From a virus, in the IMG/VR virus record IMGVR_UViG_3300032316_001090, positions 8,784 to 72,783 of that record: a stretch of DNA of 64,000 nt; one strand, given 5' to 3'. The notes below the pieces were generated by a model. That model was not told where the DNA came from. It was given only the letters and a program-made list of their open reading frames with translations, and searched no databases. Made by a program: the position numbers and the translations under genes. Of the stretch, positions 37,469 through 64,000 are shown in pieces (the first letter of the stretch is position 1; each line of letters opens with the position of its first letter).

Positions 37469-38810
37469 TTTAGAATTTAAACAACAGGTGTTGGACTCTG
37501 TGTCCCCAAGTTTTTGTGCAGCGAAATGGTACAATGCTACCATTTGGTTAGGAAGTGGGCAGACCACAAGTTGTCATCACCCGCCAGCTCATTTGATTGA
37601 CATTGATAAAGTCAATAACAACTCTAGGCTGCTGCACAATACTGATCAAAAGAAAGCGGACCGACGCAAGATGTTGGCTGGAGAGCGTCCTGCAGGCTGT
37701 GAATACTGCTGGAAGATTGAAGATATGGACACCAATGCTGTGAGTGACCGTGTGTACAAATCAAAAATTTATCCCATAAAGGCCTTGCATGAAGCAGTCA
37801 ACACCCCCATCCAAGATGATGTCAATCTTAGAACACTGGAAATCAGTTTCGATCGCACCTGTCAATTTGCTTGTTCTTATTGCAATCCTGCTTTCAGTAG
37901 CACTTGGGTTAACGATATACGAAAACATGGACCCTATAACGGGCTGGTCAGCGATGGCAGGAACCATTTTACTCATACTCATGATAGCAGTCAACTTTAT
38001 AAATTCGGTGAAACTAATCCTTACGTGGAAGCCTTCTTTGACTGGTGGGAAAGAGACCTCCACAGAACACTGCAAGAACTCCGAATAACCGGCGGCGAGC
38101 CCTTGATGTCAGGCTATACCTGGAAACTGATAGAGTGGTTCAAAACCAATCAAGGACGTAGTACAACCCGATTGGCTATCAATTCAAACTTGGGCATTGA
38201 CTTGGACAAGATCAAAGAATTTGCTGTGGCAATAGCCACATTGCCCAAGGTAGATCTATATACTTCAATGGAAGCCACCTGGGCGCAGGCTGAATACATT
38301 CGTGACGGGCTAGATTACAATCAATGGCTCGACAATGTGTTGTTTTTGTTACAAGGTCAATTTGTTAGTGCTGTGCATGTGATGTGTACCGTCAATGCCT
38401 TGTGTCTGGACAGTCTTGTGGACCATCTCAATCTGATGTTGAGTTTAAAGCAACGTTATGGTCGCGATCAAGTTAACTTTACATTGAACATCTTGCGCTT
38501 TCCTAGTTTTCAAAGTGCGTTGGTATTGCCGGATGACATTCGAAATCGTTATTGTTTGCAGTTGAAAGCATGGTTGTTCCACAATCGTGAAAACCCTTGC
38601 TTGCATGAACACGAAATAAATCATGTACAACGCCTGATTGATTACCTGGACATAGTAAAAACTCCGCACTCAGAAGCATTTGAATTATCCAAACTATTAA
38701 ATGACTTCCGGCAGTTTTACACACAATACGATCAGCGTAGATCAAAAGATTTTAGCACAGCATTTCCCAATTTGAAAGAATGGTATGACAGCTTACAAAT
38801 ACAACAGTAG
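37461..38810 (+). CDS. radical SAM enzyme, subfamily A (paralog of 34978..36378)
   Basis: CQFACSYCNPAFSSTW (CX3CX2C); ITGGEPLM; same N-terminal C-x18-C-x41-C-x2-C spacing as 34978..36378. Confidence 0.7.
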   Translation: MNDLEFKQQVLDSVSPSFCAAKWYNATIWLGSGQTTSCHHPPAHLIDIDKVNNNSRLLHNTDQKKADRRKMLAGERPAGCEYCWKIEDMDTNAVSDRVYKSKIYPIKALHEAVNTPIQDDVNLRTLEISFDRTCQFACSYCNPAFSSTWVNDIRKHGPYNGLVSDGRNHFTHTHDSSQLYKFGETNPYVEAFFDWWERDLHRTLQELRITGGEPLMSGYTWKLIEWFKTNQGRSTTRLAINSNLGIDLDKIKEFAVAIATLPKVDLYTSMEATWAQAEYIRDGLDYNQWLDNVLFLLQGQFVSAVHVMCTVNALCLDSLVDHLNLMLSLKQRYGRDQVNFTLNILRFPSFQSALVLPDDIRNRYCLQLKAWLFHNRENPCLHEHEINHVQRLIDYLDIVKTPHSEAFELSKLLNDFRQFYTQYDQRRSKDFSTAFPNLKEWYDSLQIQQ

Positions 38811-40047
38811 TGATCTAGTAAGACCCACGGAATTAACCGAACGTGAAGAATTCTTATTGAAAGATTCAAAGACATTCTGCATATATCCCTGGATTCATCT
38901 ACATGCTTACCCCACAGGCGAAGCATACCCTTGTTGTCATGCTGAAATGAAGCCAGGTGTGGTGGGCAACTGTAGAACAAATACACTAGAAGAAATATGG
39001 CAGGATGCACCCATGCAGAAGCTACGTGCAGATATGTTGAGCGAAACACCACATGCTGCCTGTACACGTTGCTATGAGCAGGAAGAATCTGGATTCTTCT
39101 CAGGTCGTCGGTCAGCTAACAAACATCATGGGCATCATATTAAAAAGCTAGAAAAGAACCCATTTGAAATGACTTATTGGGACATTCGTTTCTCAAACCT
39201 ATGCAATTTGAAGTGTCGTTCATGCGGGCATATCTTCAGCAGCCAATGGTATCAGGATCAAGCCAAGCTGGCTGGAGGCGACTGGAAAGAACGCAACACT
39301 GTGTTAAACTATGCAGGGCGCACAGAAACAGACATGTGGACACAACTAGAGCCGCACTTGGATTATGTAGAGCAGATATACTTTGCCGGCGGCGAACCAT
39401 TGTTGATGGAAGAACACTACAATATTTTAGAAGAGCTTGTGAAACGTGGACGGTTTGATGTTAGATTAATATACAACACAAACTTCACGCACACAGACTT
39501 AAAAGGTCGCTCAGTTTTTGAATACTGGAAACAATTCAAAAGTGTGGCAGTGGGTGCCAGTTTGGATGCCATGGGCCGTCCTGCAGAGTATATTAGAAAA
39601 GGCACTACCTGGGCCGACGTGGTAAAGAATCGTCATGACATGATACGCACCTGCCCCCAGGTGGACTTTTATATTTCGCCCACACTCAGCATAATGAATG
39701 CTTGGCACCTGCCAGACTTTCACAGAGAATGGGTGGCCCATGGATTGATTCGCGCTCAGGATCTAAATGTAAATATTCTTCAAGACCCAGCCTATTTCAG
39801 AATAGATATTGCTCCTGCTGACTACAAACAACGACTAGAAGCCAAGTACCGTAAACATCTTGACTGGATCAGTGATAGAGATCCGCTACAACGTGCCACA
39901 CAGGGCTTTGAAAGTGCTATAACGTTTATGAATGCCACAGACAACACCAATCTCATTGATACATTCTGGCGTAAAACACATGAGTTAGATGCCATACGAA
40001 ATGAAAACATCCTGGATGTACTGCCAGAACTAAAGGCTTTAAAATGA
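38785..40047 (+). CDS. radical SAM enzyme, subfamily B
   Basis: CNLKCRSCGHIFSSQW (CX3CX2C); AGGEPLLM; N-terminal C-x17-CC...C-x2-C. Confidence 0.7.
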   Translation: MTAYKYNSSDLVRPTELTEREEFLLKDSKTFCIYPWIHLHAYPTGEAYPCCHAEMKPGVVGNCRTNTLEEIWQDAPMQKLRADMLSETPHAACTRCYEQEESGFFSGRRSANKHHGHHIKKLEKNPFEMTYWDIRFSNLCNLKCRSCGHIFSSQWYQDQAKLAGGDWKERNTVLNYAGRTETDMWTQLEPHLDYVEQIYFAGGEPLLMEEHYNILEELVKRGRFDVRLIYNTNFTHTDLKGRSVFEYWKQFKSVAVGASLDAMGRPAEYIRKGTTWADVVKNRHDMIRTCPQVDFYISPTLSIMNAWHLPDFHREWVAHGLIRAQDLNVNILQDPAYFRIDIAPADYKQRLEAKYRKHLDWISDRDPLQRATQGFESAITFMNATDNTNLIDTFWRKTHELDAIRNENILDVLPELKALK

Positions 40048-41252
40048 ATGTGCCACACGATAAATTTTGCGTATTGCCCTGGGTCAGCCTAGAAGCTTCA
40101 CCCATTGGCACAGTGCGTCCTTGCTGCTTGGCCGACGACGAATTGGTAGATGATGCAGGCCACAAGTTCTCACTGTTGTCAGCTGACTTTGAAAGCATAC
40201 AAAATTCTCGTGCAATGACACAATTGCGTGAAGAGTTCTTGGCAGGTAAAAAACCGCAGACCTGTCGCAAGTGCTGGAATGAAGAACGTGCTGGCCGTAC
40301 AAGCAAACGCATGCACACCCTGGACAGAATGAAGCACATGGGCATCAGCAATGAATGGACCACCGATGCCAAGCCCCTGATGTTCCTAGATCTAAAGCTG
40401 GGCAACATCTGCAATTTAAAATGCCGCATATGCGGCTCATGGTCATCAAGTCAATTTGCCACAGAAGAACTCAATGACATGCCGCCGGATGAGGATAAAA
40501 AGAAATCGTTTCCCTATCAAATGCTGCGAGCCGGAGCCTGGCCCAGAGAAAATCAATCATTTTGGGCAGAAATTGATCAGTGTTTAAATCACATACGCTA
40601 CATTGAATTCACTGGTGGCGAACCATTCATGATTCGAGAACACTTTGCCATGTTACAAGGCATTGTGGATCGTGGTATTGCACATCAGGTAGAGATACAC
40701 TACAACACCAATGGCACACACTATCCTGCAGAAGCAGAATCAATTTGGCGGCATTTTAAAACAGTGGAAGTGGCATTCTCCATAGATGATCTGGGTGCAA
40801 GATTTGAATATCAACGAACCAATGCAGACTGGGCTGTGGTGGAAGACACAATCACAAGTTTTCAATATCTACGAGATCAAATGCCCAACTTGAGACTGCA
40901 ATGTTGTTCAACCGTGAACATATTCAATGTGCGTTACATTGACAAACTGGCCCACTGGATAGCACTGCAACGCTTTGACTTTGTGTACTGGAACATGATG
41001 CATGACGCATGGTATTTTTCCATTGCCACACTACCAGACAGTGCTAAAACGCAAATCACTGATCATTTACGTTCAGCTGACGTGCCCACACAGTATCGTG
41101 AAGAATTTGATCGTATCATTGACTTTATGAATCGTGGTGCCTCATCAGACGGATTTATGTTGCGCATGAAGATTGCAGACTTGGATCGCAAACGCAATCA
41201 AAACTTGCGCACAGTTGAACCTGAACTTGCGGACTTGATTGATTACCAATGA
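40044..41252 (+). CDS. radical SAM enzyme, subfamily B
   Basis: CNLKCRICGSWSSSQF (CX3CX2C); TGGEPFM; N-terminal C-x17-CC-x45-C-x2-C; ATGA overlap. Confidence 0.7.
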   Translation: MNVPHDKFCVLPWVSLEASPIGTVRPCCLADDELVDDAGHKFSLLSADFESIQNSRAMTQLREEFLAGKKPQTCRKCWNEERAGRTSKRMHTLDRMKHMGISNEWTTDAKPLMFLDLKLGNICNLKCRICGSWSSSQFATEELNDMPPDEDKKKSFPYQMLRAGAWPRENQSFWAEIDQCLNHIRYIEFTGGEPFMIREHFAMLQGIVDRGIAHQVEIHYNTNGTHYPAEAESIWRHFKTVEVAFSIDDLGARFEYQRTNADWAVVEDTITSFQYLRDQMPNLRLQCCSTVNIFNVRYIDKLAHWIALQRFDFVYWNMMHDAWYFSIATLPDSAKTQITDHLRSADVPTQYREEFDRIIDFMNRGASSDGFMLRMKIADLDRKRNQNLRTVEPELADLIDYQ

Positions 41253-42526
41253 GTCTTTGCATGGCACCTTGGGTGCATACTTATTTGAGCCCACAAACAG
41301 AACGTCGCATGTGTTGTGCAAGTCGTGAGCCTGCACAAAACTTTGAACAGTACATAGACACAGCCGCTGGCACAGGCCGGTATATCCCCATCACCTTGGA
41401 CGAACACTGGAACTCGCCACACATGATGAGTGTGCGCAGTAGAATGATGGCAGGTGAAACACTGCCTGAGTGTGAAGTGTGCAATGACAAGTTGTTAAAC
41501 ACTGATGTTTACCGCACATATTTTTGGCAGTTGTTCAAACATAAGTATCCTGATATTTGGGAAACTACAGACACCGCGGGTCGCACCACAATGCAGCCTG
41601 TGAGTTGGGATTATAGATTTTCAAATTTGTGCAATTTTAAATGTAGAACCTGCGGTGACATGTTGAGCAGTAGTTGGGAAACAGAACAACGCCAACATGG
41701 AATGACAGATTGGTCAAATCCCAAGAACACCTGGATGAGACCTGAAGTGCGGCGAGAAATTTCTGCATTTCAAGACAGTCAAATTGAACAAGAGTTTGCT
41801 GATGCTGTAGAACAACACCGTGTTGAAGAAGTGTACTGGGTAGGCGGAGAGCCACTTATGTACGAACAACATTGGCGTTATATGAAACGCATAGTTGAAC
41901 TAGGGGATGGACCACGAGTATATGCTAGATACAATACAAATTTATCCAGAGTGGATTATCGGGGTGTTAACTTATATTGTGATATTCTTTCTGGGTTGCG
42001 TGATTGGCAGATATGTGCAAGTCTCGACGGCACAGGCGCAATTGGTGAATACATCAGAACAGGTCTTGACTATGATCGCTGGCTTGAGCATTTTGGTCAA
42101 GCAGTTGAGATCCAACGTCACAGACGTCAAGTCCGAATTGACTTTACGCTCACTTTGCCCGGAATGTTCGAAGTTACACGCATTAGACAACTTGCCGAAA
42201 CATACGGGGTCGACGTCCTTGCCAAAGTGATATTTTCATTCTCTCCAGACATTGTGATGAGTCCATTGGCTTTGCCTAGATCTTTGTTAGAACCTTGGAT
42301 TGATGAACTTGTGCCCCAAGTGGATGGCGCATTACGTGATGTGTTGTTACAACTAAAAACTAGGCCTACTTTTGAAGAACAATGGCCTGATCAGTATGCA
42401 AAAGGTCTTGCAAAAGGCAAGGCACGTGTGTTACAATTAGAAAGCATACGCACACAGAAGATCACCATGACAGAAATACTTGCTGATCGTTCTGCGGTGC
42501 TAGAATGGTGGAACAACATTGCTTGA
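41249..42526 (+). CDS. radical SAM enzyme, subfamily B
   Basis: CNFKCRTCGDMLSSSW (CX3CX2C); VGGEPLM; N-terminal C-x17-CC-x51-C-x2-C; ATGA overlap. Confidence 0.7.
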   Translation: MSLCMAPWVHTYLSPQTERRMCCASREPAQNFEQYIDTAAGTGRYIPITLDEHWNSPHMMSVRSRMMAGETLPECEVCNDKLLNTDVYRTYFWQLFKHKYPDIWETTDTAGRTTMQPVSWDYRFSNLCNFKCRTCGDMLSSSWETEQRQHGMTDWSNPKNTWMRPEVRREISAFQDSQIEQEFADAVEQHRVEEVYWVGGEPLMYEQHWRYMKRIVELGDGPRVYARYNTNLSRVDYRGVNLYCDILSGLRDWQICASLDGTGAIGEYIRTGLDYDRWLEHFGQAVEIQRHRRQVRIDFTLTLPGMFEVTRIRQLAETYGVDVLAKVIFSFSPDIVMSPLALPRSLLEPWIDELVPQVDGALRDVLLQLKTRPTFEEQWPDQYAKGLAKGKARVLQLESIRTQKITMTEILADRSAVLEWWNNIA

Positions 42527-43544
42527 TAGAATTGAAATAGACCTGCGTGGCGCAGACACGCTCACATTGTACATTGATGTCACAGACAACAGTCTCAGTC
42601 GCAAATGGCTGGCTGCACTGAACAATATTTTACGCAGTGATTTGCATTTAGAAAAAAACTATTGTTGGCTAGGATGGACTGAAAGTGCGCGAACAGCAGA
42701 ATATATAATTGAGAGCATCAATGCCAGTATTCAAGCAATAAACACAGCTAATTTAGGGTACACCATTGATGATTATTTTACCGTGGGAGAGACCATACAA
42801 GATAATTTGAATGTCGACCATGATCGTATGAATCAACTGCATCGGTACTTTGAAGACCTACAGGGTCACTCTGGGCACATGAGTGCTTATTGGAGCAAAG
42901 CAGATGCTGCCACACGTTGGCACATACGCCAACTGAACTTGTTGTGTCATGAATATGAGAGTCTTGTGCTCAGCATGCGCAAGGTCATACAAGCACCTGC
43001 CTGGCGCCGACCTAGTCAGTTGATGTGCTGGCTCAATGCACCACGTTTTGCATTGGACACAGAAGATTTTGAACTGTTTGGAATAGACACACTCAACAGA
43101 CAAATGGGTGCAGTGTACGTTGGTGTAAACAAAGCAGTGGGCAAAACACACTGGGAAGTATTCAATGACGAAGGGCGTGATGTGGACGAGTTGGTTACCA
43201 CAGGACTGCGTAATCAAACTGAGGCAGCTGGCGATTTTGATATTGAGTGGGCACGGGATCCAGGTGCATATCCGTGGCAAATACAAAAAATTGCAGAATT
43301 TCGAACATGGTTAGTAGACAATGGATTTGATCCCGAAGATCGGTCGCTGACCATTGGCCATCCCAAGGTAGCGCAAGTTAATTTGTCAAAATCATTTGGC
43401 ACCTTGGACTACAATAAAATTTGGCAACAGATTTCAAATAGATTGGATGTATATAAAATTCGTACCAGTGACGCAGAAGCTACATATGAGTATCGCTGGA
43501 GCGATCGAGATTATGCTGAACAGCAAATAAGGAGATTAACATGA
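42519..43544 (+). CDS. hypothetical protein, 341 aa
   Basis: ORF overlapping the last radical-SAM gene by 8 nt. Confidence 0.5.
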   Translation: MLDRIEIDLRGADTLTLYIDVTDNSLSRKWLAALNNILRSDLHLEKNYCWLGWTESARTAEYIIESINASIQAINTANLGYTIDDYFTVGETIQDNLNVDHDRMNQLHRYFEDLQGHSGHMSAYWSKADAATRWHIRQLNLLCHEYESLVLSMRKVIQAPAWRRPSQLMCWLNAPRFALDTEDFELFGIDTLNRQMGAVYVGVNKAVGKTHWEVFNDEGRDVDELVTTGLRNQTEAAGDFDIEWARDPGAYPWQIQKIAEFRTWLVDNGFDPEDRSLTIGHPKVAQVNLSKSFGTLDYNKIWQQISNRLDVYKIRTSDAEATYEYRWSDRDYAEQQIRRLT

Positions 43545-43642
43545 AATGGTTACGCAGACTTTGGGATAGAATTACTTTGGAAATTCGTTACAGAAAAAAA
43601 CTTAAAGAACTACGCAAACGAGATCCATTTATTTACAAATGA
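43541..43642 (+). CDS. small basic peptide ORF, 33 aa (MKWLRRLWDRITLEIRYRKKLKELRKRDPFIYK)
   Basis: AAGGAG 7 nt upstream, one of the few strong SD sequences in the window; its ATG overlaps the upstream stop (ATGA) and its TGA overlaps the downstream ATG (ATGA). Confidence 0.3.
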   Translation: MKWLRRLWDRITLEIRYRKKLKELRKRDPFIYK

Positions 43643-45120
43643 ATATCTTAGGTATCAGTGCCGGCTTTCATGATGCCGCTGCCTCGGTAATCAATAGCCA
43701 AGGTGACATTGTATTTGCTGGACACAGTGAGCGTTACAGCAAACGCAAAAATGATGCAGACATTCACAAAGACTTGATATGGGACGCATGCAATGTCGGC
43801 GGTATTGATCATGTGGCCTACTACGAAACACCTTGGAAAAAACAACTACGCCAGTGGTACAGCGGTCAAGGCATAGAGTGGAACAAGTTGACCACAAAAC
43901 AAATTCTCGAGCAACAGCTCAAAGGATTTTTTCCAACAGCATCACGCAGTTGCCACAGTCATCATTTAAGCCATGCGGCCGGTGGTTTTCAAACCAGCCC
44001 ATATGACCGTGCCACAGTGGTGGTAATTGATGCCATAGGCGAGTGGGACACAATCACAATCTGGGCAGCAGAATATGACAAAAAAGGATGAGCACAGTAC
44101 AAGCCACTGTGGGCACAACGATATCCTCACAGCCTGGGTCTGTTTTACAGTGCAATTACTAAGCGTGTGGGCCTACACCCACTAGACGAAGAATACATCA
44201 CCATGGGCATGGCAGCATATGGTGATGACCATTACCATGATCTCATGGAAGCAGTATTGATCAGTGATCCCAGCACCGCAGAGTTCAAACAAAACTTACA
44301 TACCGGAGTCAGTGATACCTTCATGGGCGGTCTTGATCATGTGGATATTGCTGCCAGTGCTCAGAGATTGTTAGAACGTTTGATAGGCAACGTCATGCGT
44401 AGGGCCAGAGACTTTGGATGGTCAACAAATCTTGTGTATCAAGGTGGTGTTGCACTCAACTGTTTGGCCAACAGAACTCTAGGAGAATACTTTGACAACA
44501 TCTGGGTCATGCCCTGCCCTGGCGATGCTGGATCAAGTCTTGGAGCCGCTGCTCTTGCTTATGGTCGAAGGTTGCATTGGCACAATGCTTACCTTGGTCA
44601 CAATATCCCTGGCGCTTATCCTGTTGACAATCTTGTTTGCGGTTTACTCCAGGATGGTATTGCGGGAGCGGCCAGTGGCCGTGCTGAGTTTGGTCCCAGA
44701 GCACTAGGAAATCGTAGTCTACTGGCTGACCCACGTAGGCCCAACATAAAAGGTCAAGTAAATGCAATCAAACGCAGACAACAATTCAGACCCTTTGCAC
44801 CAGTTATATTGGTCGAACTGGCTGATCAATATTTTGACATCAAGCCTGGCTGGCATACTCACAGTTATATGCAGTCCGTTGCTCATTGCCGCCAATCTGA
44901 TGTTTACCCTAGTATATGTCATGTTGATGGCACCAGCCGAGTACAAACGGTGACAGCGGATGGATCAGGAATAAGACAATTGTTGGAAGCCTGGTATGCT
45001 GAAACTGGTTGTCCCATGTTGCTCAACACCAGTTTGAACATACGTGGAGAGCCCATGGTCAACGATCGTGCAGATGCTGATCGTTTTGAAATGTTATATG
45101 GTGTAACGGTGTATTCGTGA
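43639..45120 (+). CDS. carbamoyltransferase, NodU/CmcH/TobZ family, interrupted by one in-frame TGA (44089-44091)
   Basis: N-terminus MNILGISAGFHDAAASV...; the continuation after the stop lies in the same frame and carries the family hallmark YPHSLGLFYSAIT and MPCPGDAGSSLGAAALAY; table ORFs 43639..44091 and 44167..45120 are two halves of one gene. Confidence 0.6.
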
Positions 45121-45902
45121 TTAAATCTACAAAAACTCGATACTGCAATGAATTTTGGTACCATAGCAATGATCTAATGATTGGTACCAGCATTGATCGT
45201 TATGGTGAATACAGTCAGTGCGAAATTGATTTTATCCTGAGTTTTTTAACTGATGATGCTGTGGTATATGATGTGGGAGCCAACATAGGATATCATACCA
45301 CAGCATTTGCCACACGGGCCAGACGTGTGTATGCATTTGAACCGCACCCTGGTAACTATGCTTTGTTAGAAAAAAACACTGAAAATTTTGACAATGTGTT
45401 CTTGGGACAGTATGCAGTAAGCAACACTAGATCAACATGCTATATCTCAGATTATGATCCTGATCAGACCAGCAATTTTGGTGCTGTCAGCGTGGTTGGT
45501 AGCACCACAGGAATTCCGGTCCGTGCCATTGATTTAGACACTGCCGGCTTGGAGCCGCCGGACTTTGTCAAGATTGATGCAGAAGGTCACGAATTACAGG
45601 TGCTGCAAGGTTGTCAACAAATCATACAACAATATTGTCCTGTGGTCTACTACGAAGCACATGAAAGCCCAGATCTTAAACAAATATATCTGCTATTAGG
45701 AGATGACAGATATAGATTTTATTGGGCGCAGGTCAACAATTATAATCCTGCTAATTTTGCCGGTAACACTGACAATATTTTTGGCGGGAGTGCATTGATG
45801 AGTATTCTAGCCTGGCCTAGAACGCTAGGAGAGTTGCCAATGACTCCTGTAACAGGGCCCGACGACACTGCCAATAGATTTTATCGGGACGGGCATCCTT
45901 AG
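45117..45902 (+). CDS. FkbM-family methyltransferase
   Basis: VYDVGANIGYHTTAFA...VYAFEPHPGNYALL is the FkbM-domain SAM-binding motif; ATGA overlap with the upstream gene. Confidence 0.6.
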   Translation: MIKSTKTRYCNEFWYHSNDLMIGTSIDRYGEYSQCEIDFILSFLTDDAVVYDVGANIGYHTTAFATRARRVYAFEPHPGNYALLEKNTENFDNVFLGQYAVSNTRSTCYISDYDPDQTSNFGAVSVVGSTTGIPVRAIDLDTAGLEPPDFVKIDAEGHELQVLQGCQQIIQQYCPVVYYEAHESPDLKQIYLLLGDDRYRFYWAQVNNYNPANFAGNTDNIFGGSALMSILAWPRTLGELPMTPVTGPDDTANRFYRDGHP

Positions 45903-46942
45903 AGGTAAGTCTCTAATCCGCCGCGTCTGCGGATGTCTTGTGTACAGCATGAGATGCCACCGTCCCAGAAGTACGAATGACGCAGTTCGCTGATGATAGG
46001 TTCTATCCGATGCCGGCGGCAGTAGTCAAACACTTCTCGATTGTATGCTGAGAATATAACATGTGACTCATCTAACACAAGACAGTTCACATCAAACACA
46101 GTTTCAGCAACAAAGCCAGTCCACTTGGTTAGATAAGTGTCCACAAACTGTGTGAACTCTGCGGTAGGTGTTTGTCCTTGTACATACCAAGCACCCGGTG
46201 ATTGTTCGTACTTGAACTTGCCAACTTCCATAGCTGCCCATATTGAGCTATCCCAAATTTTACAAACGTCCCAACCAGGAAAGTCTCGGGCTAGATCCAA
46301 ATTAACATCGTGCTTGCTACTCAGCAGCACTCCAGGCTTGAGAATAGCAAACACCGCATCGCCGTGCCCGTCTGTGATGGCTTCGTGTATGCGATATTCT
46401 GGTCCCAACACATTGTCCACAATCCAACGAGTTTGATCAGGGCGCAAGAAATCTGAGTTATCAAAGAATACATCACGGCCTACTCGCACAATGCATGACG
46501 CCGACGCACCGTTTAGGATGCAGTTCTCGTCCCAACCAGTAGTACCGTGTGGATTGATCACTGCGCCAGGCTGTGCGGCCGCATATTCAGCGCACAGTGA
46601 ATCAAGCTCTTGCATGGGCAACACACGCAACAATTTATCGCCCAGGGTGATTTGCCAGTCGCGTGGCGTCAGTGGCGGCAGTGCAGCACCTCCTCCTTCG
46701 GTCTGAAACCATACAAATTGATCTTTGTTGGGCAAATCAGGACGCCGCACTTGAGCACCGTATTGTTCAATGGTTCGTTGCAGGTTGTTGAGATCTTCTT
46801 CAGTTTCATGGAGAATCTGTTGCAATTGATTGCGCACCTGTGGATTGTCTATAAAATCAAAGTAGTCAGGTGTGTAGGCCCGTCCCACAATGACTTCTTC
46901 TAGTGGTTGCCACGACGTATATGAATTAACTATATTGCTCAT
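45899..46942 (-). CDS. amidinotransferase-superfamily enzyme (GATM/StrB1-like)
   Basis: C-terminal FWDGGISCCTQDIRRRG resembles the active-site Cys segment of glycine/inosamine-phosphate amidinotransferases; its stop overlaps the FkbM stop convergently (ttag). Confidence 0.45.
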   Translation of the reverse strand: MSNIVNSYTSWQPLEEVIVGRAYTPDYFDFIDNPQVRNQLQQILHETEEDLNNLQRTIEQYGAQVRRPDLPNKDQFVWFQTEGGGAALPPLTPRDWQITLGDKLLRVLPMQELDSLCAEYAAAQPGAVINPHGTTGWDENCILNGASASCIVRVGRDVFFDNSDFLRPDQTRWIVDNVLGPEYRIHEAITDGHGDAVFAILKPGVLLSSKHDVNLDLARDFPGWDVCKIWDSSIWAAMEVGKFKYEQSPGAWYVQGQTPTAEFTQFVDTYLTKWTGFVAETVFDVNCLVLDESHVIFSAYNREVFDYCRRHRIEPIISELRHSYFWDGGISCCTQDIRRRGGLETYL

Positions 46943-48116
46943 GAATTTTCCTGATCAAGCTATTTAAACGATCAGCTTTGTTGGCAACAAATAATCGTTG
47001 GTTGTGTTCCAGCTGTGGCCTGGCAGCTTCAAACAATTCAGACAAATGTGGCCTGGCAGCTTCTATACTGTCACGCAGGCGTTCCCAACGCTGTGTGTGA
47101 TTTGGTATGGTGTCATAACTGTTGTCTAACAAGTCATCAAACACTTGATAGCCCAAGTCACGCAACACTTGCAAACTGCCTGCGCCGCCTGCTACAAAGA
47201 ACAGTTGCCCGTGTTTGATGGGCTTGAATGTTTTTTCTGTGACAAATGCCCCACCTGATTGATCCACATCAAATTGACTTTCCAACACAATTTGACAGTA
47301 GGAGTCTCCATAGTATTTGGGCACCATGACAGCATGATTGTTACGATCAAAATCTGATAACTCGTCACTGACATAAGGTGCTTGTTGTAAAAATTTGGTT
47401 CGATCATATCGCAAGCGACTGATCATATCAACTTCAATGGGACAGTCTGTGTCAGCATCGTAAGGTGCTTCACAGTAACTCCAGTAACTGTTGCTCAGCA
47501 AGCCTGTGCGATGCAAGTCTGCCATGGCAGTGGCACGCCACCATTTGTGCAGTCTGCTCAAACAAGTAAAGTCTCGCTGTCTGGGCTCGCGATGTATCAT
47601 GTAAGGTGTGCTGGTCAAGTTACGCTGATAATACCATAACTCAAAGTCATGAAATGTAACAAAGCCCGGCAACTGATCAGCCGCGGTGTTGGCACTTACA
47701 AAAACATAGCAATCTGGCGGAAGCAAATGGTTTTCTGCTAGACTATCCAATCTGTTTTTGATGCGCCTGGGATTGTCGCCTTCGTGATACATGAATAACA
47801 CACGCAGTTTGTCTTGCCGTAGCTTTTTTCTAACTTCGGGAGACATGAGTTCAAAGTAATCAATTTCAAAGTCAAAGAATCCCAAGCAGATGGGATAGTA
47901 ACTGTTGTCAGGGCAATCAGTGTCTACAGCATAGTTATTGATCACAATGCTGTGTTCACGGCAGTACTCTTCCAAGCGCAGGGGTGTGGTGTAGGGCCAA
48001 TGTTGTCCAAACTCACGCCAGCTTTGCGTGTATGGTCGGCCTTGATGACGAGCCAGGGCTGGGTATATACGCCCTTTGATGGTGCTGTCAACTACAAAAT
48101 TAAACTGTGAATTCAT
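46926..48116 (-). CDS. glycosyltransferase, fucosyltransferase-like TEK-motif family, paralog 2
   Basis: GAFVTEKTFKPIKHGQLFFVAGGAGSLQVLRDLGYQVFDDLLDNSYD is collinear with paralog 3 and with 36353..37468. Confidence 0.45.
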   Translation of the reverse strand: MNSQFNFVVDSTIKGRIYPALARHQGRPYTQSWREFGQHWPYTTPLRLEEYCREHSIVINNYAVDTDCPDNSYYPICLGFFDFEIDYFELMSPEVRKKLRQDKLRVLFMYHEGDNPRRIKNRLDSLAENHLLPPDCYVFVSANTAADQLPGFVTFHDFELWYYQRNLTSTPYMIHREPRQRDFTCLSRLHKWWRATAMADLHRTGLLSNSYWSYCEAPYDADTDCPIEVDMISRLRYDRTKFLQQAPYVSDELSDFDRNNHAVMVPKYYGDSYCQIVLESQFDVDQSGGAFVTEKTFKPIKHGQLFFVAGGAGSLQVLRDLGYQVFDDLLDNSYDTIPNHTQRWERLRDSIEAARPHLSELFEAARPQLEHNQRLFVANKADRLNSLIRKIHEQYS

Positions 48117-49191
48117 CCAACATGCCCATGAGCTCTTGCCATAATATCTTGGTCAGCCCACCGTTGTAGAAGTGATTGAAGTTGTGTTCTACAATTTCAA
48201 CACAGCCCTGGTGTATGCGCTGACGTTCCTCAACGCCTAACTTTTCTAGATGTTTTAGCAGCTGGGTGACCTTTTCTACTCGCACTATGTCATCAGTTTC
48301 CAAGTCATAGCTCTCATCAAACACTGAATCAAATGTGCGGAAACCATATTCTCGCATGTAGGCCAGGCTGCCAGCAGGAGCCACCAACACAAACGGCATT
48401 TCCATGGCAATGGCCTTGAAGGTCTTTTCTGTGATGTGTGTACGGCGTCCAAAGTACACAGTTTCGGTGGGCACGTATACTAGACTGTCGGCAGCCTCAT
48501 CAAAGTTTGTGAGCCAACAACTGGCCATTTGTTGAGTCTCTTCACCGGGAAACAGTTTAGGCAATGGCGCTGCCGCAAACACTTGCTCAATGTCGGGATA
48601 TATGTTATTATACTTACGAGCTATCTTACTGATATCAACACCCTCATAGGTGCAGGTTCTAGGAGCCGATATCCAGTTGTGATCCAGCTCATGTTTGAAT
48701 ACGTTATACAAGAACAACACACGATGATCACGCTTGCCGGCCACAATACGATTGGGACTCATAAAAGTCCGTGTGGGCTGCCGATCTCGTGCTCGCGGAA
48801 TCAAAAAACTCTTGTCGTAGCCTCGAAACCAATCCTGACAGGCCCAACCATGATAAAAATAGTAATGCGGAGTCCAGCCATACACACGACACATTTCTTC
48901 CACATGCTCGCCCCGCTCGCTAACTACTACATGACCAGGCGGTTGAACCCAAATATCATCGTTGCGGCGAATCACATCATCAAACAAAGGCTTGTGCAAG
49001 TCCATGTGAACAGGTTCTTGATCATGCATGAATATATAGTCAATTTCGCGCACATCGTCTCCACCGTAGTTGAACAAACTTTCGGAATCACTGCGCCCCG
49101 GTGGATCACAAAAAAATACTCTAGTACCAGGAACATGTTGCCGAATCCAAGGCCAAAAGGTGTTGTTGTAAATTTCGTCTATTCTAATCAT
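48100..49191 (-). CDS. glycosyltransferase, fucosyltransferase-like TEK-motif family, paralog 3
   Basis: RRTHITEKTFKAIAMEMPFVLVAPAGSLAYMREYGFRTFDSVFDESYD; start codon overlaps the divergent start of 49190..52408 (CATG). Confidence 0.45.
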   Translation of the reverse strand: MIRIDEIYNNTFWPWIRQHVPGTRVFFCDPPGRSDSESLFNYGGDDVREIDYIFMHDQEPVHMDLHKPLFDDVIRRNDDIWVQPPGHVVVSERGEHVEEMCRVYGWTPHYYFYHGWACQDWFRGYDKSFLIPRARDRQPTRTFMSPNRIVAGKRDHRVLFLYNVFKHELDHNWISAPRTCTYEGVDISKIARKYNNIYPDIEQVFAAAPLPKLFPGEETQQMASCWLTNFDEAADSLVYVPTETVYFGRRTHITEKTFKAIAMEMPFVLVAPAGSLAYMREYGFRTFDSVFDESYDLETDDIVRVEKVTQLLKHLEKLGVEERQRIHQGCVEIVEHNFNHFYNGGLTKILWQELMGMLDEFTV

Positions 49192-52100
49192 GTTTGATAT
49201 TTTTTATTCAGGACCTAAGCCTAATTTGTTTGTGCATGAGCGCAAAGTTGACAGTATTGAACATGCACGGCAATTGAGCACCACTAGATACTTTTGGTGG
49301 GTAAATTACTTAGCGGACTACAGTAACTTTGATTTTCTTTGGGAACCTGTGCCCTGGCAGGCCAATCAAATTCATACATGGCCCAGCCAATGGCACGAAT
49401 ATTCAGGAACTTACCTGGTTCCAAAACAACCCACCGATCAATTGAACTTCCACAGTGAGATTGTTCCTAACCAATCTCTAAGAAAAAACTGGCATGTGTT
49501 GCACGCCATAGACGAAACTGGTTGGAATTGGACCTGGGCTCCACATCCATTGGATCCACCTTACATCTATGTGTTCGGTAATCAGTGGTGGCCCGGTGAA
49601 ATCATGCCCACTGTGGAATATCATGTGCCTGGCGCCACAGAACGCAAGTACATGGACATGACTGCAACATTAGTCCAAGACAAAACCAACTGGACCATGC
49701 ATGCATGTGTCAAACAATGGGATTACAGCTGGGTGCCAGATCCTGGATCACCACCGTATGTCTATGTGTGGGGCAATCAACATTGGCCTGGCGAAATCAT
49801 GCCTACTATGACATACACAGTGCCTGGTGCAGTAGAGATCAAATACGTAGATGGTCCACAACCTGAGCTCAGCAGTTGCATGAGTGGCTGGGAGTTTTGC
49901 GAAGATATTGACCACAGTGCCTGGGATTGGACCTGGGTACCAAACCCCAAAGACCCACCTTACATCTATGTGTGGGGCAACCAATGGAATCCACCAGAGT
50001 TCAAAGCCAGCTTGAGATATCATGTGTCCGGCGCAACAGAAATCAAGTACATGGATCGCCGCACACGCCGGTTGCCCAACTACAGCAATCATTGGCGTGT
50101 GCATATCAATGTAGAACAATTTGATTACTCCTGGGAACCCAATCCGTTTGATCCTCCTTACATTTATGTGTTTGGAAATCAATGGAACAGCGCAGTGCTA
50201 GAGCCCACTGTGGCCTATCATGTGCCTGGTGCCACAGAACGCAAGTATGTGGAAGATATTGTGGCCACAGTGGCGCAGAATCCTGCTGCGTTTGAACTGA
50301 TTGATGATGTACTAGAATTTGATTATTCCTGGAGACCCAACCCTACTGATCCGCCTTATGTGTATGTGTTCGGTAATCAATGGCTCACACCTGAACAGCG
50401 GCCAGCATTGCAGTACACCGTTGGTAACGCTACAGAAATCAAGTACATGGATGAGCCAAAGGCACAGCGCAAAGGCGATCCAGAAAAGTTTCAAACATTG
50501 TTTGATTGTGTGTTTGATTGGTCGTGGGAACCAGAACCTGGCAGCCCTCCATACAACTATATGTTTGGTAATCAATGGCATGCTGCCGAAGTCATGCCCA
50601 CTGTGGAATATCGCATGCCGGGTGCCACAGAAGTCAAATACATGGATGAGCCAAAAGCCCAGTTACCTGAGAACCCCAATCGACCTTGGTACAACGTAGT
50701 TGAAAGTGACATGGATTATTCTTGGGTGCCCGACCCAGGCGACCCTCCGTACATTTACGTGTTTGGCAACCAATGGCATGCTGCCGAAATCATGCCCACT
50801 GTGGAATATCGCATGCCCGGTGCCGCAGACCGCAAGTACATGGACTCACCTGTGGCTGAATTACCAGCAGACATGACATTATGGCATGTGCCAGACAATG
50901 TTGATATTCGGGACATGGATTTCTCTTGGGTACCGGATCCTGGATCACCGCCTTACATCTATCAATTTGCTACACAGCATCAAAAAACCGGAGGCCCACA
51001 GTATCGTATGCCAGGTGCAACAGAAATCAAGTATGTGGACATGATGCAAGCCGAAGTCAAAGCTGAATCTGTGCCTGTTGTTGAGATCGATCACTTGGAT
51101 GGCCATGCAGGCAATATTCCCAACACCATTAAGCGTATACGATATTTTGACAACTATCGTGACACATTGATTCGCCTGGCCAAAAGTCTTGTGGGCACAC
51201 ATGAACATGTGTGGGTGTGTAGTTCAATATGCGATTACACTGACTTTGATTTTTCCTGGCACCCAGAAAAGTGGCAAAGCACCATGCTGCATGTGTTCCC
51301 CAGCAACGAACAAAAGTTTGGAGACACATTCTACATGCATGTTCCAACCTTTGCTGAACGTGCAGAAAAGAAACAGTTGTTGGAATGGTACTCGGTAAAC
51401 TATGTGTCTCGGCGCAAGGCACTGCGTAGACCCATGCCTGTGATTGAACACAGTGAGGATAGCCAAGTCAATGTTGTTAAGAACACCAATTGGGCAGGAC
51501 CGCTGGCTACATTTACCACAACAGATTATGTGCCGGGCGATATGGTCACTGTTCCACTGTGGCGTACTGAAACCAAGACCATTACGCCACTCAGCCGAGG
51601 TGCAACCAGTGTGATTGTGCCAAAGTCGGCAGTGGGACACATACGCACACAGTTGTACGATTATCCTTACATAGACAAAACACATCGTTTATTAAAAGAT
51701 GAACCATTAGACATTGTGTTTATCAGCAATGGCGAACCCAATGCCAAGTCTAATTATTTGCAGATGACCGTGTATCTGGCCAACGAGTCAAGGTACACAA
51801 ACCGAGTTCATGTGGTAGAAGGAGTAAATGGACGAGTGGCAGCATATCATGCGGCTGCTAGAGCCAGCACCACACCTTGGTTCTTTGCTGTGTTTGCCAA
51901 GCTAGAAGTAAATCAAATGTTTGATTGGACCTGGCAACCTGATCGTATGCAACAGCCCAAACACTATATTTTCCATGCTGGTAATCCTGTAAATGGATTG
52001 GTGTACGGCCATCAGGCTATGATTGCTTACAACCGACAATTGGTATTAGAGAACACAGGTGTTGGTTTGGATTTTACGCTGGATCAAGCACACGAAGTTG

Positions 52101-52408
52101 TACCTGTCGTCAGTGGCACAGCCATGTATGCCGAAACACCTTGGATGGCCTGGCGCACCGCGTTCCGTGAAGCACTCAAACTACGTGCCAGCTTGCCTGA
52201 CGTGGAAAATGAATATAGACTAAAAGTCTGGTTAAAGGAAGACTCCGGTACCATTGCTAACGGACATTGGAGCTCAAAAGGCGCACAGGATGCAGTGGAG
52301 TATTATGACGCAGTCGGGGGTGACTTTGCAGAACTGCGCAAGAGTTATGACTGGGCTTGGTTGGCCAGCTATGCATTTATGCGTCGCAGTCTAACAACTG
52401 ATCAATAA
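49190..52408 (+). CDS. tandem-repeat protein, 1072 aa (8 x ~67-aa DYSWxPxPxxPPYIYVFGNQW repeats)
   Basis: Long uninterrupted ORF; eight consecutive repeats, near-identical at the nucleotide level; related degenerate modules at the N-terminus (DFDFLWEPVPW) and C-terminus (DFDFSWHPEKW; DWTWQPD). Confidence 0.75.
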   Translation: MFDIFYSGPKPNLFVHERKVDSIEHARQLSTTRYFWWVNYLADYSNFDFLWEPVPWQANQIHTWPSQWHEYSGTYLVPKQPTDQLNFHSEIVPNQSLRKNWHVLHAIDETGWNWTWAPHPLDPPYIYVFGNQWWPGEIMPTVEYHVPGATERKYMDMTATLVQDKTNWTMHACVKQWDYSWVPDPGSPPYVYVWGNQHWPGEIMPTMTYTVPGAVEIKYVDGPQPELSSCMSGWEFCEDIDHSAWDWTWVPNPKDPPYIYVWGNQWNPPEFKASLRYHVSGATEIKYMDRRTRRLPNYSNHWRVHINVEQFDYSWEPNPFDPPYIYVFGNQWNSAVLEPTVAYHVPGATERKYVEDIVATVAQNPAAFELIDDVLEFDYSWRPNPTDPPYVYVFGNQWLTPEQRPALQYTVGNATEIKYMDEPKAQRKGDPEKFQTLFDCVFDWSWEPEPGSPPYNYMFGNQWHAAEVMPTVEYRMPGATEVKYMDEPKAQLPENPNRPWYNVVESDMDYSWVPDPGDPPYIYVFGNQWHAAEIMPTVEYRMPGAADRKYMDSPVAELPADMTLWHVPDNVDIRDMDFSWVPDPGSPPYIYQFATQHQKTGGPQYRMPGATEIKYVDMMQAEVKAESVPVVEIDHLDGHAGNIPNTIKRIRYFDNYRDTLIRLAKSLVGTHEHVWVCSSICDYTDFDFSWHPEKWQSTMLHVFPSNEQKFGDTFYMHVPTFAERAEKKQLLEWYSVNYVSRRKALRRPMPVIEHSEDSQVNVVKNTNWAGPLATFTTTDYVPGDMVTVPLWRTETKTITPLSRGATSVIVPKSAVGHIRTQLYDYPYIDKTHRLLKDEPLDIVFISNGEPNAKSNYLQMTVYLANESRYTNRVHVVEGVNGRVAAYHAAARASTTPWFFAVFAKLEVNQMFDWTWQPDRMQQPKHYIFHAGNPVNGLVYGHQAMIAYNRQLVLENTGVGLDFTLDQAHEVVPVVSGTAMYAETPWMAWRTAFREALKLRASLPDVENEYRLKVWLKEDSGTIANGHWSSKGAQDAVEYYDAVGGDFAELRKSYDWAWLASYAFMRRSLTTDQ
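49517..51020 (+). repeat. coding tandem repeat array, ~200-nt period x 8
   Basis: Recurring ...caatggcatgctgccgaaRtcatgcccactgtggaatatcgcatgccSggtgcc... blocks; protein-level period ~65-70 aa. Confidence 0.8.
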
Positions 52409-52409
52409 A

Positions 52410-53216
52410 CTATTTTAGCAAATTGTTGTGAGTTTGAATTAATGCATACACATGTTGTGTATTGGTTAGGTAACGATCTTCAAACAGTGCGCCGTCATAA
52501 ATTTTACACATCTTTGATAAATTATAATTGATCCAGGCCTGTTCAATGACTGTACAATCTATCTCTGTGTCAGTGTTGGCAAATATATTTTCTATTATGC
52601 GATTACATTTGATAAAAGATTGCCAACCTTGATTTTTTGCTATAAATTCGCGCCATAACACATACAGTGATTGATCAGGAAAAAATGTTTGATTCAAGAA
52701 AGTTGCCAAAGAATTTAATTCAACGCAAAAATTTTTGAAAGAAAAAAAAGATTCAAACTTAAACTCATGCACAGAATTTGATATTGATAAAAAGTCAGCA
52801 TAGTAGTTGGCATACTTTTTGCGATCATCAAATTTGCAGTACCAATTGTCTCTTAATTTAATTGTGTGATTTCTAACAGAATCAGGTAAGTTCAACTGTT
52901 GCTTTTCAAATCCTATATCACCAGCTTTGAAAATTAAATTGGTAAGTGCAATAAAAAAAGTATCATCGTTATCAGAATCTATTACAATCCTAATAACTTG
53001 ATCACCATCATTGATTTTTAACTTAGTGTGTGGAGCTGAAAAATGTCCACACTCAATTATGCGGTTGTTGAGATAACCATCATCAGGATTATGCGCAGAG
53101 TAGGTAGGCGGTCTAAAAATACTGCGTTGACTTGGTGCAGTCTGCATGATATATACGTTACTGACATATTCTAAAAAATGGCCATGTGTACTACCGTGAA
53201 AATCTATTTTAATCAT
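52410..53216 (-). CDS. hypothetical protein, 268 aa
   Basis: ORF convergent with the repeat gene, 1-nt gap; first of a co-directional - strand run. Confidence 0.5.
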   Translation of the reverse strand: MIKIDFHGSTHGHFLEYVSNVYIMQTAPSQRSIFRPPTYSAHNPDDGYLNNRIIECGHFSAPHTKLKINDGDQVIRIVIDSDNDDTFFIALTNLIFKAGDIGFEKQQLNLPDSVRNHTIKLRDNWYCKFDDRKKYANYYADFLSISNSVHEFKFESFFSFKNFCVELNSLATFLNQTFFPDQSLYVLWREFIAKNQGWQSFIKCNRIIENIFANTDTEIDCTVIEQAWINYNLSKMCKIYDGALFEDRYLTNTQHVYALIQTHNNLLK

Positions 53217-54289
53217 AAAATAACATCTAACAACTGATCAATGATGTATTCAACTTCAAGATCAGTCAGTTCAGGATAGATAGGCAAACTCAAGCAACGT
53301 CTGCTCAATGAGCTAGCAGCACTGAGTATATCTGGACCTGGATAATGCTGATATGCCGGTAGCTCGTGCAATGGGTGTGTGTAATGCACTCTAGTATCAA
53401 TACCTGCCGTTAGCAGCCTGGCTCGAACTTGATCTCGATTGTCTATGTCAACCACAAACTTGTGGAAACAATGCTTGTCAAAATTACTTTTGTCTATTAG
53501 CGATCGTGCAGGCGATTTGTCCAAGCGGTTCATCCAATAGGCAGCAATGGTGCTTCTGCGACTTTGCCATGCAGCCAAGTGCCGGGTCTTGACCATCATC
53601 TGCGCACAATCCACTTCACTCATGCGACTGTTGGTGCCTATCTCGGCATAGCCTGTGCTCTTGCCGTTGTTGACCCAACTACGAGCATAATTCAACAACT
53701 CATAATCATCTGTAACAACGGCACCACCGTTGCCATAGTTGCCTAGATTTTTCATGGGATCAAAACTAATAGCGGTTGACCCATATCTGATACAACCATT
53801 AGAGAGCCAATGCTGGGCGGCATCTTCAATCAAGCCTGAACCCATTCGATTTTGTAATACGTTGGGCAACGCTGATCCGTACAAGCCAATACCAAGAATG
53901 GCTTGATAGGATACATCAGGATTGATTTTTGTAAGATTCATGTTACCATACGCATCAGTGTCTACAAAATGCAGATTCCAGCCAGCGCGAACAAATGCAT
54001 TGGCTGATGCAGGAAAGGTCATTGATGGAACAAGCACTGTGGGCGGATTTATTCCCAGTCTTTGTCGAGCAAAGCTGGCAATAATTTCTAGTGCTTGTGT
54101 GCCTGAATGACAGGTAACAGCATGTTTGACATGATTTTCGTAGGCCAACCATGACTCAAAGTTGGCAGTGTGCTCTGCATTCATGAGACGCCCAGATGCT
54201 AGGACGTGATCCGTTGCATCCAGTATCTCTTGGCGTAGATTGTTATACTGTCTTTGAAGACCAGTAAACTGAATTAGAGAGCCATTCAT
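53213..54289 (-). CDS. DegT/DnrJ/EryC1/StrS-family PLP-dependent sugar aminotransferase
   Basis: N-terminus LIQFTGLQRQY...; TCHSGTQALEI; PLP-lysine segment ISFDPMKNLGNYGNGGAVVTDDYEL...NNGKS. Confidence 0.8.
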   Translation of the reverse strand: MNGSLIQFTGLQRQYNNLRQEILDATDHVLASGRLMNAEHTANFESWLAYENHVKHAVTCHSGTQALEIIASFARQRLGINPPTVLVPSMTFPASANAFVRAGWNLHFVDTDAYGNMNLTKINPDVSYQAILGIGLYGSALPNVLQNRMGSGLIEDAAQHWLSNGCIRYGSTAISFDPMKNLGNYGNGGAVVTDDYELLNYARSWVNNGKSTGYAEIGTNSRMSEVDCAQMMVKTRHLAAWQSRRSTIAAYWMNRLDKSPARSLIDKSNFDKHCFHKFVVDIDNRDQVRARLLTAGIDTRVHYTHPLHELPAYQHYPGPDILSAASSLSRRCLSLPIYPELTDLEVEYIIDQLLDVIL

Positions 54290-55217
54290 AGTAATTTTGA
54301 AATCCTTGTTCTACGTCTACTCGGGGGTCAAAGCTCAAAATGGTTCTGGCTCTGTCAATGTTCAATGCACCACGTGATGGAAAGTCAGCATCTCGGTCAC
54401 CGACTTCAATGGTGCCTCGGCCCACAATCTTCACAATCATTTCTGCGGCTTCTAGTAGGCTTACTGAATGACTCTTGGTGATATTGAATGTCATGTTGCG
54501 GCACATGATGCGTGTGGCAGCGGCAACAATGCCATCAGCGGCGTCATCCACATAGGTAAAGTCCAAGGTTTCATTGGCACCATTTACCTTGAGAGTTTCT
54601 CCTCGCATGGCAGCAAGCATGAATTTTGCAATCACACGATCCGCCACGTCAAGAGGTCCGTACACAGCACTGGGACGAATGATCACATACTCAAAGCCAC
54701 AGCGACGAGCATAATCTTTGACCAGTTCTTCTCCACATAATTTCAAGATACCATACTGTCCTTTGGGATGGCATGGATCATCCTCCAGCACGTCATCTTC
54801 AAAGTCTCCGTACACCATGCTGGAACTGATGTACACAAATCGTTCAATGCCGTGCTTTTTGGCACTCTCAAGCATGTTGACCAGACCCCGCATCATGACA
54901 TCAGCGGCCTCAGTTGGCTTGTGATTCACGGCCTTTTGTCTGGGGTAGCTGGCACAATGAATGATGACCCGGGGTTTATGGTTGAGTACCGCCAAGTCAC
55001 AGGTCCAAAAGTTTGAAATATCAAAGCATTCAATTTTTGTGTCTGGTGCAATCTTTTTCTGTCGCTCTGCCATCAAGTAGTCAAGTTCCTCTTGAGGAAT
55101 AAAATTGTGATAAGTGGTTTTTGTGTCTAATATGACCACCTGTTCATCACGTGCTTGAAGACGTTGTACTACGTTGTGCCCAATAAGGCCTAGGCCGCCT
55201 GTTACTAAAAATGTCAT
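54243..55217 (-). CDS. NAD-dependent sugar epimerase/dehydratase (extended SDR)
   Basis: N-terminal TGGLGLIGHNVVQRL (GxxGxxG Rossmann motif); catalytic YGILK (YxxxK). Confidence 0.8.
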   Translation of the reverse strand: MTFLVTGGLGLIGHNVVQRLQARDEQVVILDTKTTYHNFIPQEELDYLMAERQKKIAPDTKIECFDISNFWTCDLAVLNHKPRVIIHCASYPRQKAVNHKPTEAADVMMRGLVNMLESAKKHGIERFVYISSSMVYGDFEDDVLEDDPCHPKGQYGILKLCGEELVKDYARRCGFEYVIIRPSAVYGPLDVADRVIAKFMLAAMRGETLKVNGANETLDFTYVDDAADGIVAAATRIMCRNMTFNITKSHSVSLLEAAEMIVKIVGRGTIEVGDRDADFPSRGALNIDRARTILSFDPRVDVEQGFQNYYEWLSNSVYWSSKTV

Positions 55218-55552
55218 TTGAATTTTAACCTAAAAAATGTTTGATTTGGTTCGCTGAGTCTGGCCATGATTCGATACTGGTAGCCATAACTGCTGTGATC
55301 TACCCGACGAATCCAGTATGGTGTTTGCACAGCATGAGCTATGACCCACTGACCCGATTCACTTTTTTCCCATTCCCATAACGGTTGTGCCGCATACAAG
55401 TCTGGATCGTCTACGTCGCCCATAGTAAACTCATGCACACAAATATCACTGAAACGCACCAGTCGGTCGTTGATAATTTTGCATTCTTCGGCCTGCCAGT
55501 GCATGGATGTTTCATAATTGTTGCATGTTGTTGACATACAACATTGTAGCAT
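55214..55552 (-). CDS. hypothetical protein, 112 aa
   Basis: ORF overlapping the start of the epimerase gene. Confidence 0.45.
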   Translation of the reverse strand: MLQCCMSTTCNNYETSMHWQAEECKIINDRLVRFSDICVHEFTMGDVDDPDLYAAQPLWEWEKSESGQWVIAHAVQTPYWIRRVDHSSYGYQYRIMARLSEPNQTFFRLKFK

Positions 55553-55557
55553 AATTT

Positions 55558-56517
55558 TTATGTTGGTGCAACCAACGTTTGTATTTTTTGATAGATTTGA
55601 TCAGCATAAAATGCATGTGTTTTGATTCCGGGATGTAGCAGGTCAGACCCTATATCTATAAACATATTGCTGGGATCTCTACCCCAGATTCCATTTAACA
55701 TTACTAAATTAGGAAAATCTTGAATGTAGTTAATCACTGACTGATCGAACAGGTTAGCCAATATTAATTTTGCATTTATCTTTGTGCAAAAGTTGATGAC
55801 CTGATGCACACTGATAACTGAGTGATACAGAGCTTGATCACTAACAAGATACTCTGTTGTTGATGGCGTTTGTTTCCACACTGAGTGATTTAGGCCAAAA
55901 CATCGGATCTCGTTCATTTCAAATTTAGTAAGCCTTGTATGAGATGTTATTCCCCATACCACAAGATCTCCAGGTCTAATGTCTGATCTGAGAATTTGAT
56001 CAGCTGCCCATACAATAGATGAGCCTGAGTGCGTTAGGAAACTTGCACTGATATTTAATCGATCTGCTAGTAATTGTCCATATCGTGTGCGGGTGTCTAC
56101 ACCGTCGCCCTTGCTTATACTACATCCAGCAATCCATAGTTGTGAACTGTCTGTTTTTCTTGTGTCAGCAAGTGTTAATATCTGATCAAATTCTGGCTCA
56201 CGAGCATTGGTATAGTTTTCTACCTGGCATCGGAATCTGAATATATTTAAATAATCTTCAGTCCATGTTTGCATCTGACTCTTGCCAAACAAACTGTCGC
56301 TCCATTTGTCAGGCGGCGGAGAATACACAATACGATCGGCTTGCTGTAGCACATCGCCTAACACTGCTAAATTAGTTAAATCGCCTAAACTGGTAAAGTA
56401 TGTTCCGGACTCTAAGTTCTTGTAATTTTCTTCAGTGATTAACTGCGCATCTGGATCTGACATAACAGCCTGTTGTCTTAGATAGTCAGTTATATCACCA
56501 AGATAGATTGTGATCAT
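55558..56517 (-). CDS. hypothetical protein, 319 aa (weak SGNH-hydrolase-like GCSISKGDG segment)
   Basis: ORF between the ThyX and epimerase genes. Confidence 0.5.
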   Translation of the reverse strand: MITIYLGDITDYLRQQAVMSDPDAQLITEENYKNLESGTYFTSLGDLTNLAVLGDVLQQADRIVYSPPPDKWSDSLFGKSQMQTWTEDYLNIFRFRCQVENYTNAREPEFDQILTLADTRKTDSSQLWIAGCSISKGDGVDTRTRYGQLLADRLNISASFLTHSGSSIVWAADQILRSDIRPGDLVVWGITSHTRLTKFEMNEIRCFGLNHSVWKQTPSTTEYLVSDQALYHSVISVHQVINFCTKINAKLILANLFDQSVINYIQDFPNLVMLNGIWGRDPSNMFIDIGSDLLHPGIKTHAFYADQIYQKIQTLVAPT

Positions 56518-62151: not shown

Positions 62152-62157
62152 ACGTAT

Positions 62158-62186
62158 ATTATAACAGATTGTGAATTAATGGTCAA
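62158..62186 (-). promoter_or_regulatory. sigma70-like promoter TTGACC-N17-TATAAT, leaderless geometry
   Basis: On the - strand, -35 at 62186-62181 and -10 at 62163-62158, then 6 nt to the ATG at 62151; sits in a 50-nt intergenic gap. Confidence 0.45.
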
Positions 62187-62201
62187 TGTAGTACTTGAGT
62201 A

Positions 62202-63980: not shown

Positions 63981-64000
63981 GGGCTGTTTCCTTTCGGGGG

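Follow-up and report, generated by a model that had tools for sequence, protein, structure and literature searches.

Carbamoyltransferases of the NodU/CmcH/TobZ type combine a Kae1-like and a YrdC-like domain, and the closest solved structures to the protein described here are those of NovN, GdmN and TobZ (PDB 3VEN, 9S2T and 7VZQ for TobZ, NovN and GdmN), which range from 576 to 702 aa. The same family also supplies accessory genes to large myoviruses, in the form of the ‘Nol-like’ carbamoyltransferases of cyanophages and pelagiphages. The nearest cultured relative is Ralstonia jumbo phage RsoM2USA, whose ORF199 is 45% identical over 99% of the query, while the proteins of S-CAM8 and S-SSM5 are about 30% identical; all of these are intact ORFs. 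The GenBank record of RsoM2USA annotates CDS features only, every one of them as ‘hypothetical protein’. All that we know of the clade examined here comes from metagenome contigs, the longest of about 360 kb.

Among bacterial stop codons UGA is the leakiest, and the A1 protein of Q-beta is the classic case. Programmed readthrough of this kind involves an in-frame UGA beyond which the coding sequence continues in frame, and the stops concerned recur in related sequences and lengthen a protein that is already complete. An ordinary CGA-to-TGA nonsense mutation is a single transition that produces a stop not conserved in relatives.

We analysed a 64,000-nucleotide stretch of viral DNA (IMG/VR record IMGVR_UViG_3300032316_001090, positions 8,784 to 72,783; the whole stretch is referred to as the window), in which an in-frame TGA at 44089–44091 (codon 151) splits a carbamoyltransferase gene of 493 codons (43639–45120, + strand) with no frameshift. 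The window protein has its two-domain architecture in common with TobZ, NovN and GdmN; it is shorter, at 493 aa, and it is cut at codon 151. As in the Q-beta case, coding sequence continues in frame beyond the UGA, but the stop in the window is unique and lies inside a catalytic domain. If the T is real, nothing sets the locus apart from an ordinary nonsense mutation, with which it shares both the single transition and a stop that is not conserved.

The interrupted gene and its neighbourhood

Translation and Pfam searches bear out the original prediction of a carbamoyltransferase gene carrying a single in-frame TGA, with both halves in one frame. The gene, its parts and its immediate neighbours are as follows.

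43541–43642, + strand: 33-aa upstream ORF, whose TGA overlaps the carbamoyltransferase ATG (ATGA); seen in the sequence and a called gene in an identical ENA contig
43639–45120, + strand: carbamoyltransferase gene of the NodU/CmcH/TobZ type, 493 codons and a stop, disrupted at codon 151; from translation, Pfam, structures and homologs
43639–44091, + strand: N-terminal fragment ORF of 150 aa, with the HxxxH motif (108–112) and the IDAIGE aspartate motif (130–135) of the Kae1-like domain
44089–44091, + strand: premature TGA at codon 151, with T at 44089 where the ancestral CGA (Arg) had C; from comparison with relatives
44092–45120, + strand: in-frame remainder, codons 152–493, with YPHSLG (162–167), GDAGSS (295–300) and the entire C-terminal YrdC-like domain
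45117–45902, + strand: FkbM-type methyltransferase gene (PF05050, E 8e-19), whose GTG start overlaps the carbamoyltransferase stop (GTGA)

Read from the ATG at 43639, the frame runs through 150 sense codons to the TGA at 44089–44091 and then through 342 more to the TGA at 45118–45120. When the joined translation was searched with codon 151 masked, Carbam_trans_N (PF02543, Kae1-like) matched residues 104–304, across the stop, with an E-value of 6.7e-35 and 121.6 bits (cut-off 24), and Carbam_trans_C (PF16861, YrdC-like) matched with an E-value of 2.2e-46 and 158 bits (cut-off 27). Both domains exceed their gathering scores, which places the protein in the NodU/CmcH/TobZ family. The motifs HHLSH (108–112), IDAIGE (130–135) and GDAGSS (295–300) align with their equivalents in NovN and GdmN, and GPRALGNRS and FRPFAP are conserved in the C-terminal part. 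By analogy with the rest of the family, HxxxH, D and DAG in the Kae1-like domain are taken to be metal- and nucleotide-binding ligands. In the homologs and viral loci examined both domains are carried by a single uninterrupted polypeptide, and in the window they are not. The loop around residue 151 differs in length between the solved homologs and is variable in sequence as well, and R, Q and L are tolerated at the residue itself.

The two parts are unlikely to work as a functional split gene. The earliest possible restart for the remainder is the GTG at 44167 (codon 177), which has no Shine-Dalgarno-like sequence upstream and comes after the conserved YPHSLG, and the stop separates conserved motifs that belong to one domain. 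Shortly before the stop is a run of six A (GAC AAA AAA GGA, 44074–44088) that is specific to the lineage of the window; in relatives, codons 148–149 encode Arg, Lys, Gln, Thr, Ser or Gly. Frameshifting at this run was considered and rejected, since the two halves share a frame and a shift would destroy the protein instead of restoring it. The run is irrelevant to the stop, but sequencing could be error-prone there.

The overlap of the carbamoyltransferase stop with the GTG of the FkbM methyltransferase gene suggests that the latter is probably translationally coupled to the former. If so, the premature stop may break the coupling, and the methyltransferase would then be under-expressed, a polar effect that we read from the gene arrangement. 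A DegT aminotransferase, an epimerase/dehydratase, a CTP-transferase-like protein and a PfkB kinase are encoded in the identical contigs, and the surrounding genes suggest an accessory block for glycan or nucleotide-sugar modification. Because the carbamoyltransferase gene lies in such a block, its loss is plausibly tolerated. The block would also take in the FkbM methyltransferase gene and three tandem paralogous radical SAM/SPASM genes at 38785–42526 (+ strand); in the first two products, the SPASM iron-sulfur domain matches close to the N-terminus (residues 32–97 and 9–78) and stands ahead of the radical SAM core (135–281 and 119–287), the reverse of the usual order.

Elsewhere in the window, an ORF of 5212 aa (10849–26487, + strand) ends in TAA and has a faint match to FG-GAP_2 as its sole recorded Pfam match. 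It comes after a gp25-like baseplate gene (6829–7203), which matches PF04965 in the identical contig, and after a DUF8360 protein of 1199 aa, and its product is presumably a very large baseplate or tail-fibre protein of this jumbo phage. Two direct repeats of 102 nt (50545–50646 and 50743–50844), 86% identical to each other, lie inside a 1072-aa ORF (49190–52408) for which there was no convincing Pfam match, and these repeats produce secondary BLAST hits. A gene for a ThyX-type (Thy1) thymidylate synthase lies at 56524–57210 on the − strand, and in a 351-kb relative Band_7, TerC and Rpb6-like genes are found further downstream of ThyX; all four are typical jumbo-phage auxiliary genes. The 440-aa ORF at 60829–62151 is not on record as a called protein.

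Codon 151 in relatives and in a near-identical assembly

A search of a large protein collection returned thousands of relatives of the carbamoyltransferase. The best 120 of them are 79–99% identical to it and 478–500 aa long, and since all are uninterrupted single proteins the window gene is not a chance juxtaposition of two ORFs; at the position of codon 151 they carry Arg (94 proteins), Gln (23) or Leu (3), and never Cys. By tblastn, Arg stands at 151 in all of the 120 viral loci listed for the CGN control pattern given below (54–91% amino acid identity, 80 of the alignments spanning at least 470 residues), and the gene is free of in-frame stops throughout. From 22 related loci a full-length ORF was extracted; codon 151 is CGA in 21 of these and CGT in the other, and dN/dS against the window gene has a median of 0.16, which indicates that the gene is normally under purifying selection in this clade.

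The original prediction had proposed that a TGA shared by related genomes would argue for functional recoding. None was found in any collection, and this result speaks against recoding. The pattern G-TGA-A-x-Y-x-x-L-W-x-Q-x-Y-P-H had no match in the viral, metagenome and reference-genome collections; with CGN in place of TGA, as a positive control, it had at least 120 in just the viral collection. That collection had no match to the exact local sequence, with either C or T at 44089, which indicates that the strain is absent from the viral sequences searched. Megablast of positions 43000–46000 against GenBank phages likewise gave no match, and distant protein-level relatives are all that is found there. 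Across the sequences compared, the TGA is private to the window, and the gene is normally functional in the clade.

Exact-protein look-ups of window genes led to an ENA assembly, ERZ28593720 (sample SAMEA4981855), two scaffolds of which, scaffold_267 (42.3 kb) and scaffold_1242 (19.6 kb), tile window positions 1–60980. Over these 60,980 nt there are no indels and only two substitutions, at 12900 and 44089. At 44089 the window has T (TGA) and scaffold_1242 has C (CGA, Arg), the sole difference over window positions 41414–55902. Because an otherwise essentially identical genome has the gene intact, the stop can be traced to one C-to-T transition in an Arg codon; CGA, one of the single-base changes that had been predicted to restore the ORF, is the codon actually present in the near-identical contig. 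The nearest homolog protein is encoded on a 4.4-kb ENA contig from another sample, with 99.28% DNA identity to the window and again CGA at codon 151, and contigs 98.3–99.3% identical to the window were found in two other samples of the same series as SAMEA4981855.

The second substitution, C in the window and T in the scaffold at 12900, is synonymous (Thr684, ACC/ACT) and falls in the 5212-aa ORF; it suggests that the window was assembled independently, from a near-identical strain. The end of scaffold_267 and the start of scaffold_1242 overlap by 55 nt at 41414–41468, and the window bridges this assembly break. On the right the window extends about 3 kb past scaffold_1242 (60981–64000), and the best match found for that part, about 97% identical, is on a contig of 351,693 bp (JGI 3300045436 Ga0492740_0000001).

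Nonsense allele, artefact and recoding

The reading that we prefer, with a probability of roughly 0.65, is that of a recent, private nonsense allele, with TGA in place of CGA, by which an accessory gene that is normally conserved has been cut short and inactivated. In an intact O-carbamoyltransferase gene kept by selection, a C-to-T transition at 44089 would have replaced the Arg151 codon (CGA) with an opal stop. Since the remainder of the gene and about 61 kb around it match the sister assembly with one other, synonymous, difference, this would have happened very recently. The locus has the character of a nascent pseudogene, in that the sense codon of its closest relatives is one substitution away and there are no other disabling changes; elsewhere the gene does not differ from the intact allele and shows no secondary decay. 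The absence of indels and the single synonymous transition in 61 kb favour a real allele, in a microdiverse population, over an error. Stop-creating substitutions make up 4.2% of all those possible in 17283–60980, and 3.2% of the transitions, and a lone nonsense difference is somewhat unexpected; the surprise is lowered by the fact that the site was selected for being a stop.

The predicted consequence of a nonsense allele is that translation ends after 150 residues, in a fragment that keeps the HxxxH and first aspartate motifs. Such a fragment would be without YPHSLG, GDAGSS and the C-terminal domain, leaving the enzyme inactive apart from the host's basal UGA leakiness, and neither piece should be active alone. 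What little readthrough product arose would probably be active, because residue 151 lies in a substitution-tolerant variable loop. Inactivation may therefore be incomplete, and nothing suggests more than background leakage.

It is possible, but rather unlikely, that sequencing, consensus calling, polishing or some other artefact produced the T at 44089, and that the real genome has CGA and an intact gene. An otherwise identical contig of the same population has C, no other assembly in the collections searched has T, a look-up of the 150-aa fragment found none on record as a called protein, and the site follows the A6 homopolymer, a context in which some platforms err. Against these points stands the apparent accuracy of the window, which has no indels and one other, synonymous, difference in 60,980 nt. 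Consensus substitution errors are rare in assemblies of such quality, and homopolymer errors are usually indels.

A nonsense mutation and a sequence error jointly account for nearly all of the probability, and these are the two that survive of the four options originally put forward; for the other two, readthrough and a phage suppressor tRNA, no positive evidence was found, and neither is required to account for the sequence. Functional recoding in any form, all versions taken together, we regard as improbable.

Partial readthrough of a real TGA, by near-cognate decoding or through its context, would yield a reduced amount of full-length enzyme from an attenuated or regulated form of the gene. 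Position 151 lies in a variable loop tolerating R, Q and L, so that a readthrough product would probably work. Nevertheless we consider this explanation very improbable, since the stop is conserved in no relative found and the RNA downstream is without significant structure: the 91 nt from just before the stop have a minimum free energy of −18.8 kcal/mol against a shuffle mean of −21.5 (z = +0.87), and no Rfam family matched the window at gathering scores or the interval 43900–44300 at E-values up to 1. Of the two marks of programmed readthrough, a stop conserved in orthologs and a stimulatory structure or element downstream, neither was seen. The surroundings are moreover the same as those of the intact CGA allele, so nothing has evolved around the stop.

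Just as doubtful is a version of this idea in which the TGA allele is segregating and is kept because leaky UGA decoding yields a low dose of active carbamoyltransferase. If it were true, the allele would act as a single-base ‘dimmer’ on an accessory pathway that modifies surfaces or glycans, and the coupled methyltransferase might be subject to polar effects; the leak would come from near-cognate tRNAs of the host or from a phage opal suppressor, at a loop position that tolerates substitutions.

An opal suppressor tRNA (anticodon UCA) encoded elsewhere in the genome of about 350 kb could also decode the TGA, and large tRNA sets do occur in this group. RsoM2USA has 44 tRNA genes including an amber suppressor (PMC8504454), and our own ARAGORN scan of that genome (50–112 kb) recovered 44, one of which, with anticodon CTA and labelled tRNA-Pyl, is the amber suppressor of that report. 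None of the 44 has the anticodon TCA, however, and ARAGORN scans of the window, the 120 related viral loci listed and the near-identical contigs came back without any tRNA gene; the related loci amount to about 1.1 Mb and cover the neighbourhood of the carbamoyltransferase gene only. TGA is the commonest ordinary stop in the window, ending 22 of 47 ORFs (those of at least 70 aa, with the internal stop counted), and many of these stops lie in ATGA or GTGA gene overlaps, so that an efficient opal suppressor would be costly. The TGA at 5741–5743, cited in the original prediction as a genuine stop, does indeed end an ORF (4241–5743) in an ATGA overlap with the next gene, and stop-codon usage agrees with the accompanying view that global recoding is unlikely. 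The CGA allele also shows that the stop has not come about within a recoded gene. A suppressor thus merits even less credence than leaky decoding.

Selenocysteine, or a phage genetic code that reassigns TGA to an amino acid (codes 4 or 25), can be dismissed: nothing beyond the in-frame TGA itself speaks for either, the best 120 homologs have Arg, Gln or Leu in place of Cys or selenocysteine, no hairpin lies just 3' of the UGA, the window holds no Rfam SECIS match and no tRNA-Sec, and TGA is neither avoided as a terminator (21 other ORFs end in it) nor frequent inside genes, no other long gene in the window being split by it and long uninterrupted ORFs, one of 5212 aa, running throughout.

Consequences for annotation and for the phage lineage

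The interruption is an ordinary nonsense change, or else a base-call error; it is nothing new in kind and raises no fresh biological question. Annotators should mark the gene as disrupted, or as awaiting verification against reads, and should not enter it as two genes. The stop is not usable as evidence for stop-codon recoding in the jumbo-phage lineage to which the window belongs. More generally, a lone in-frame stop in a metagenome-derived phage genome is resolvable once it is set against public contigs of near-identical sequence. A real allele would provide a convenient strain marker and an example of the loss of an accessory glycan-modification gene.
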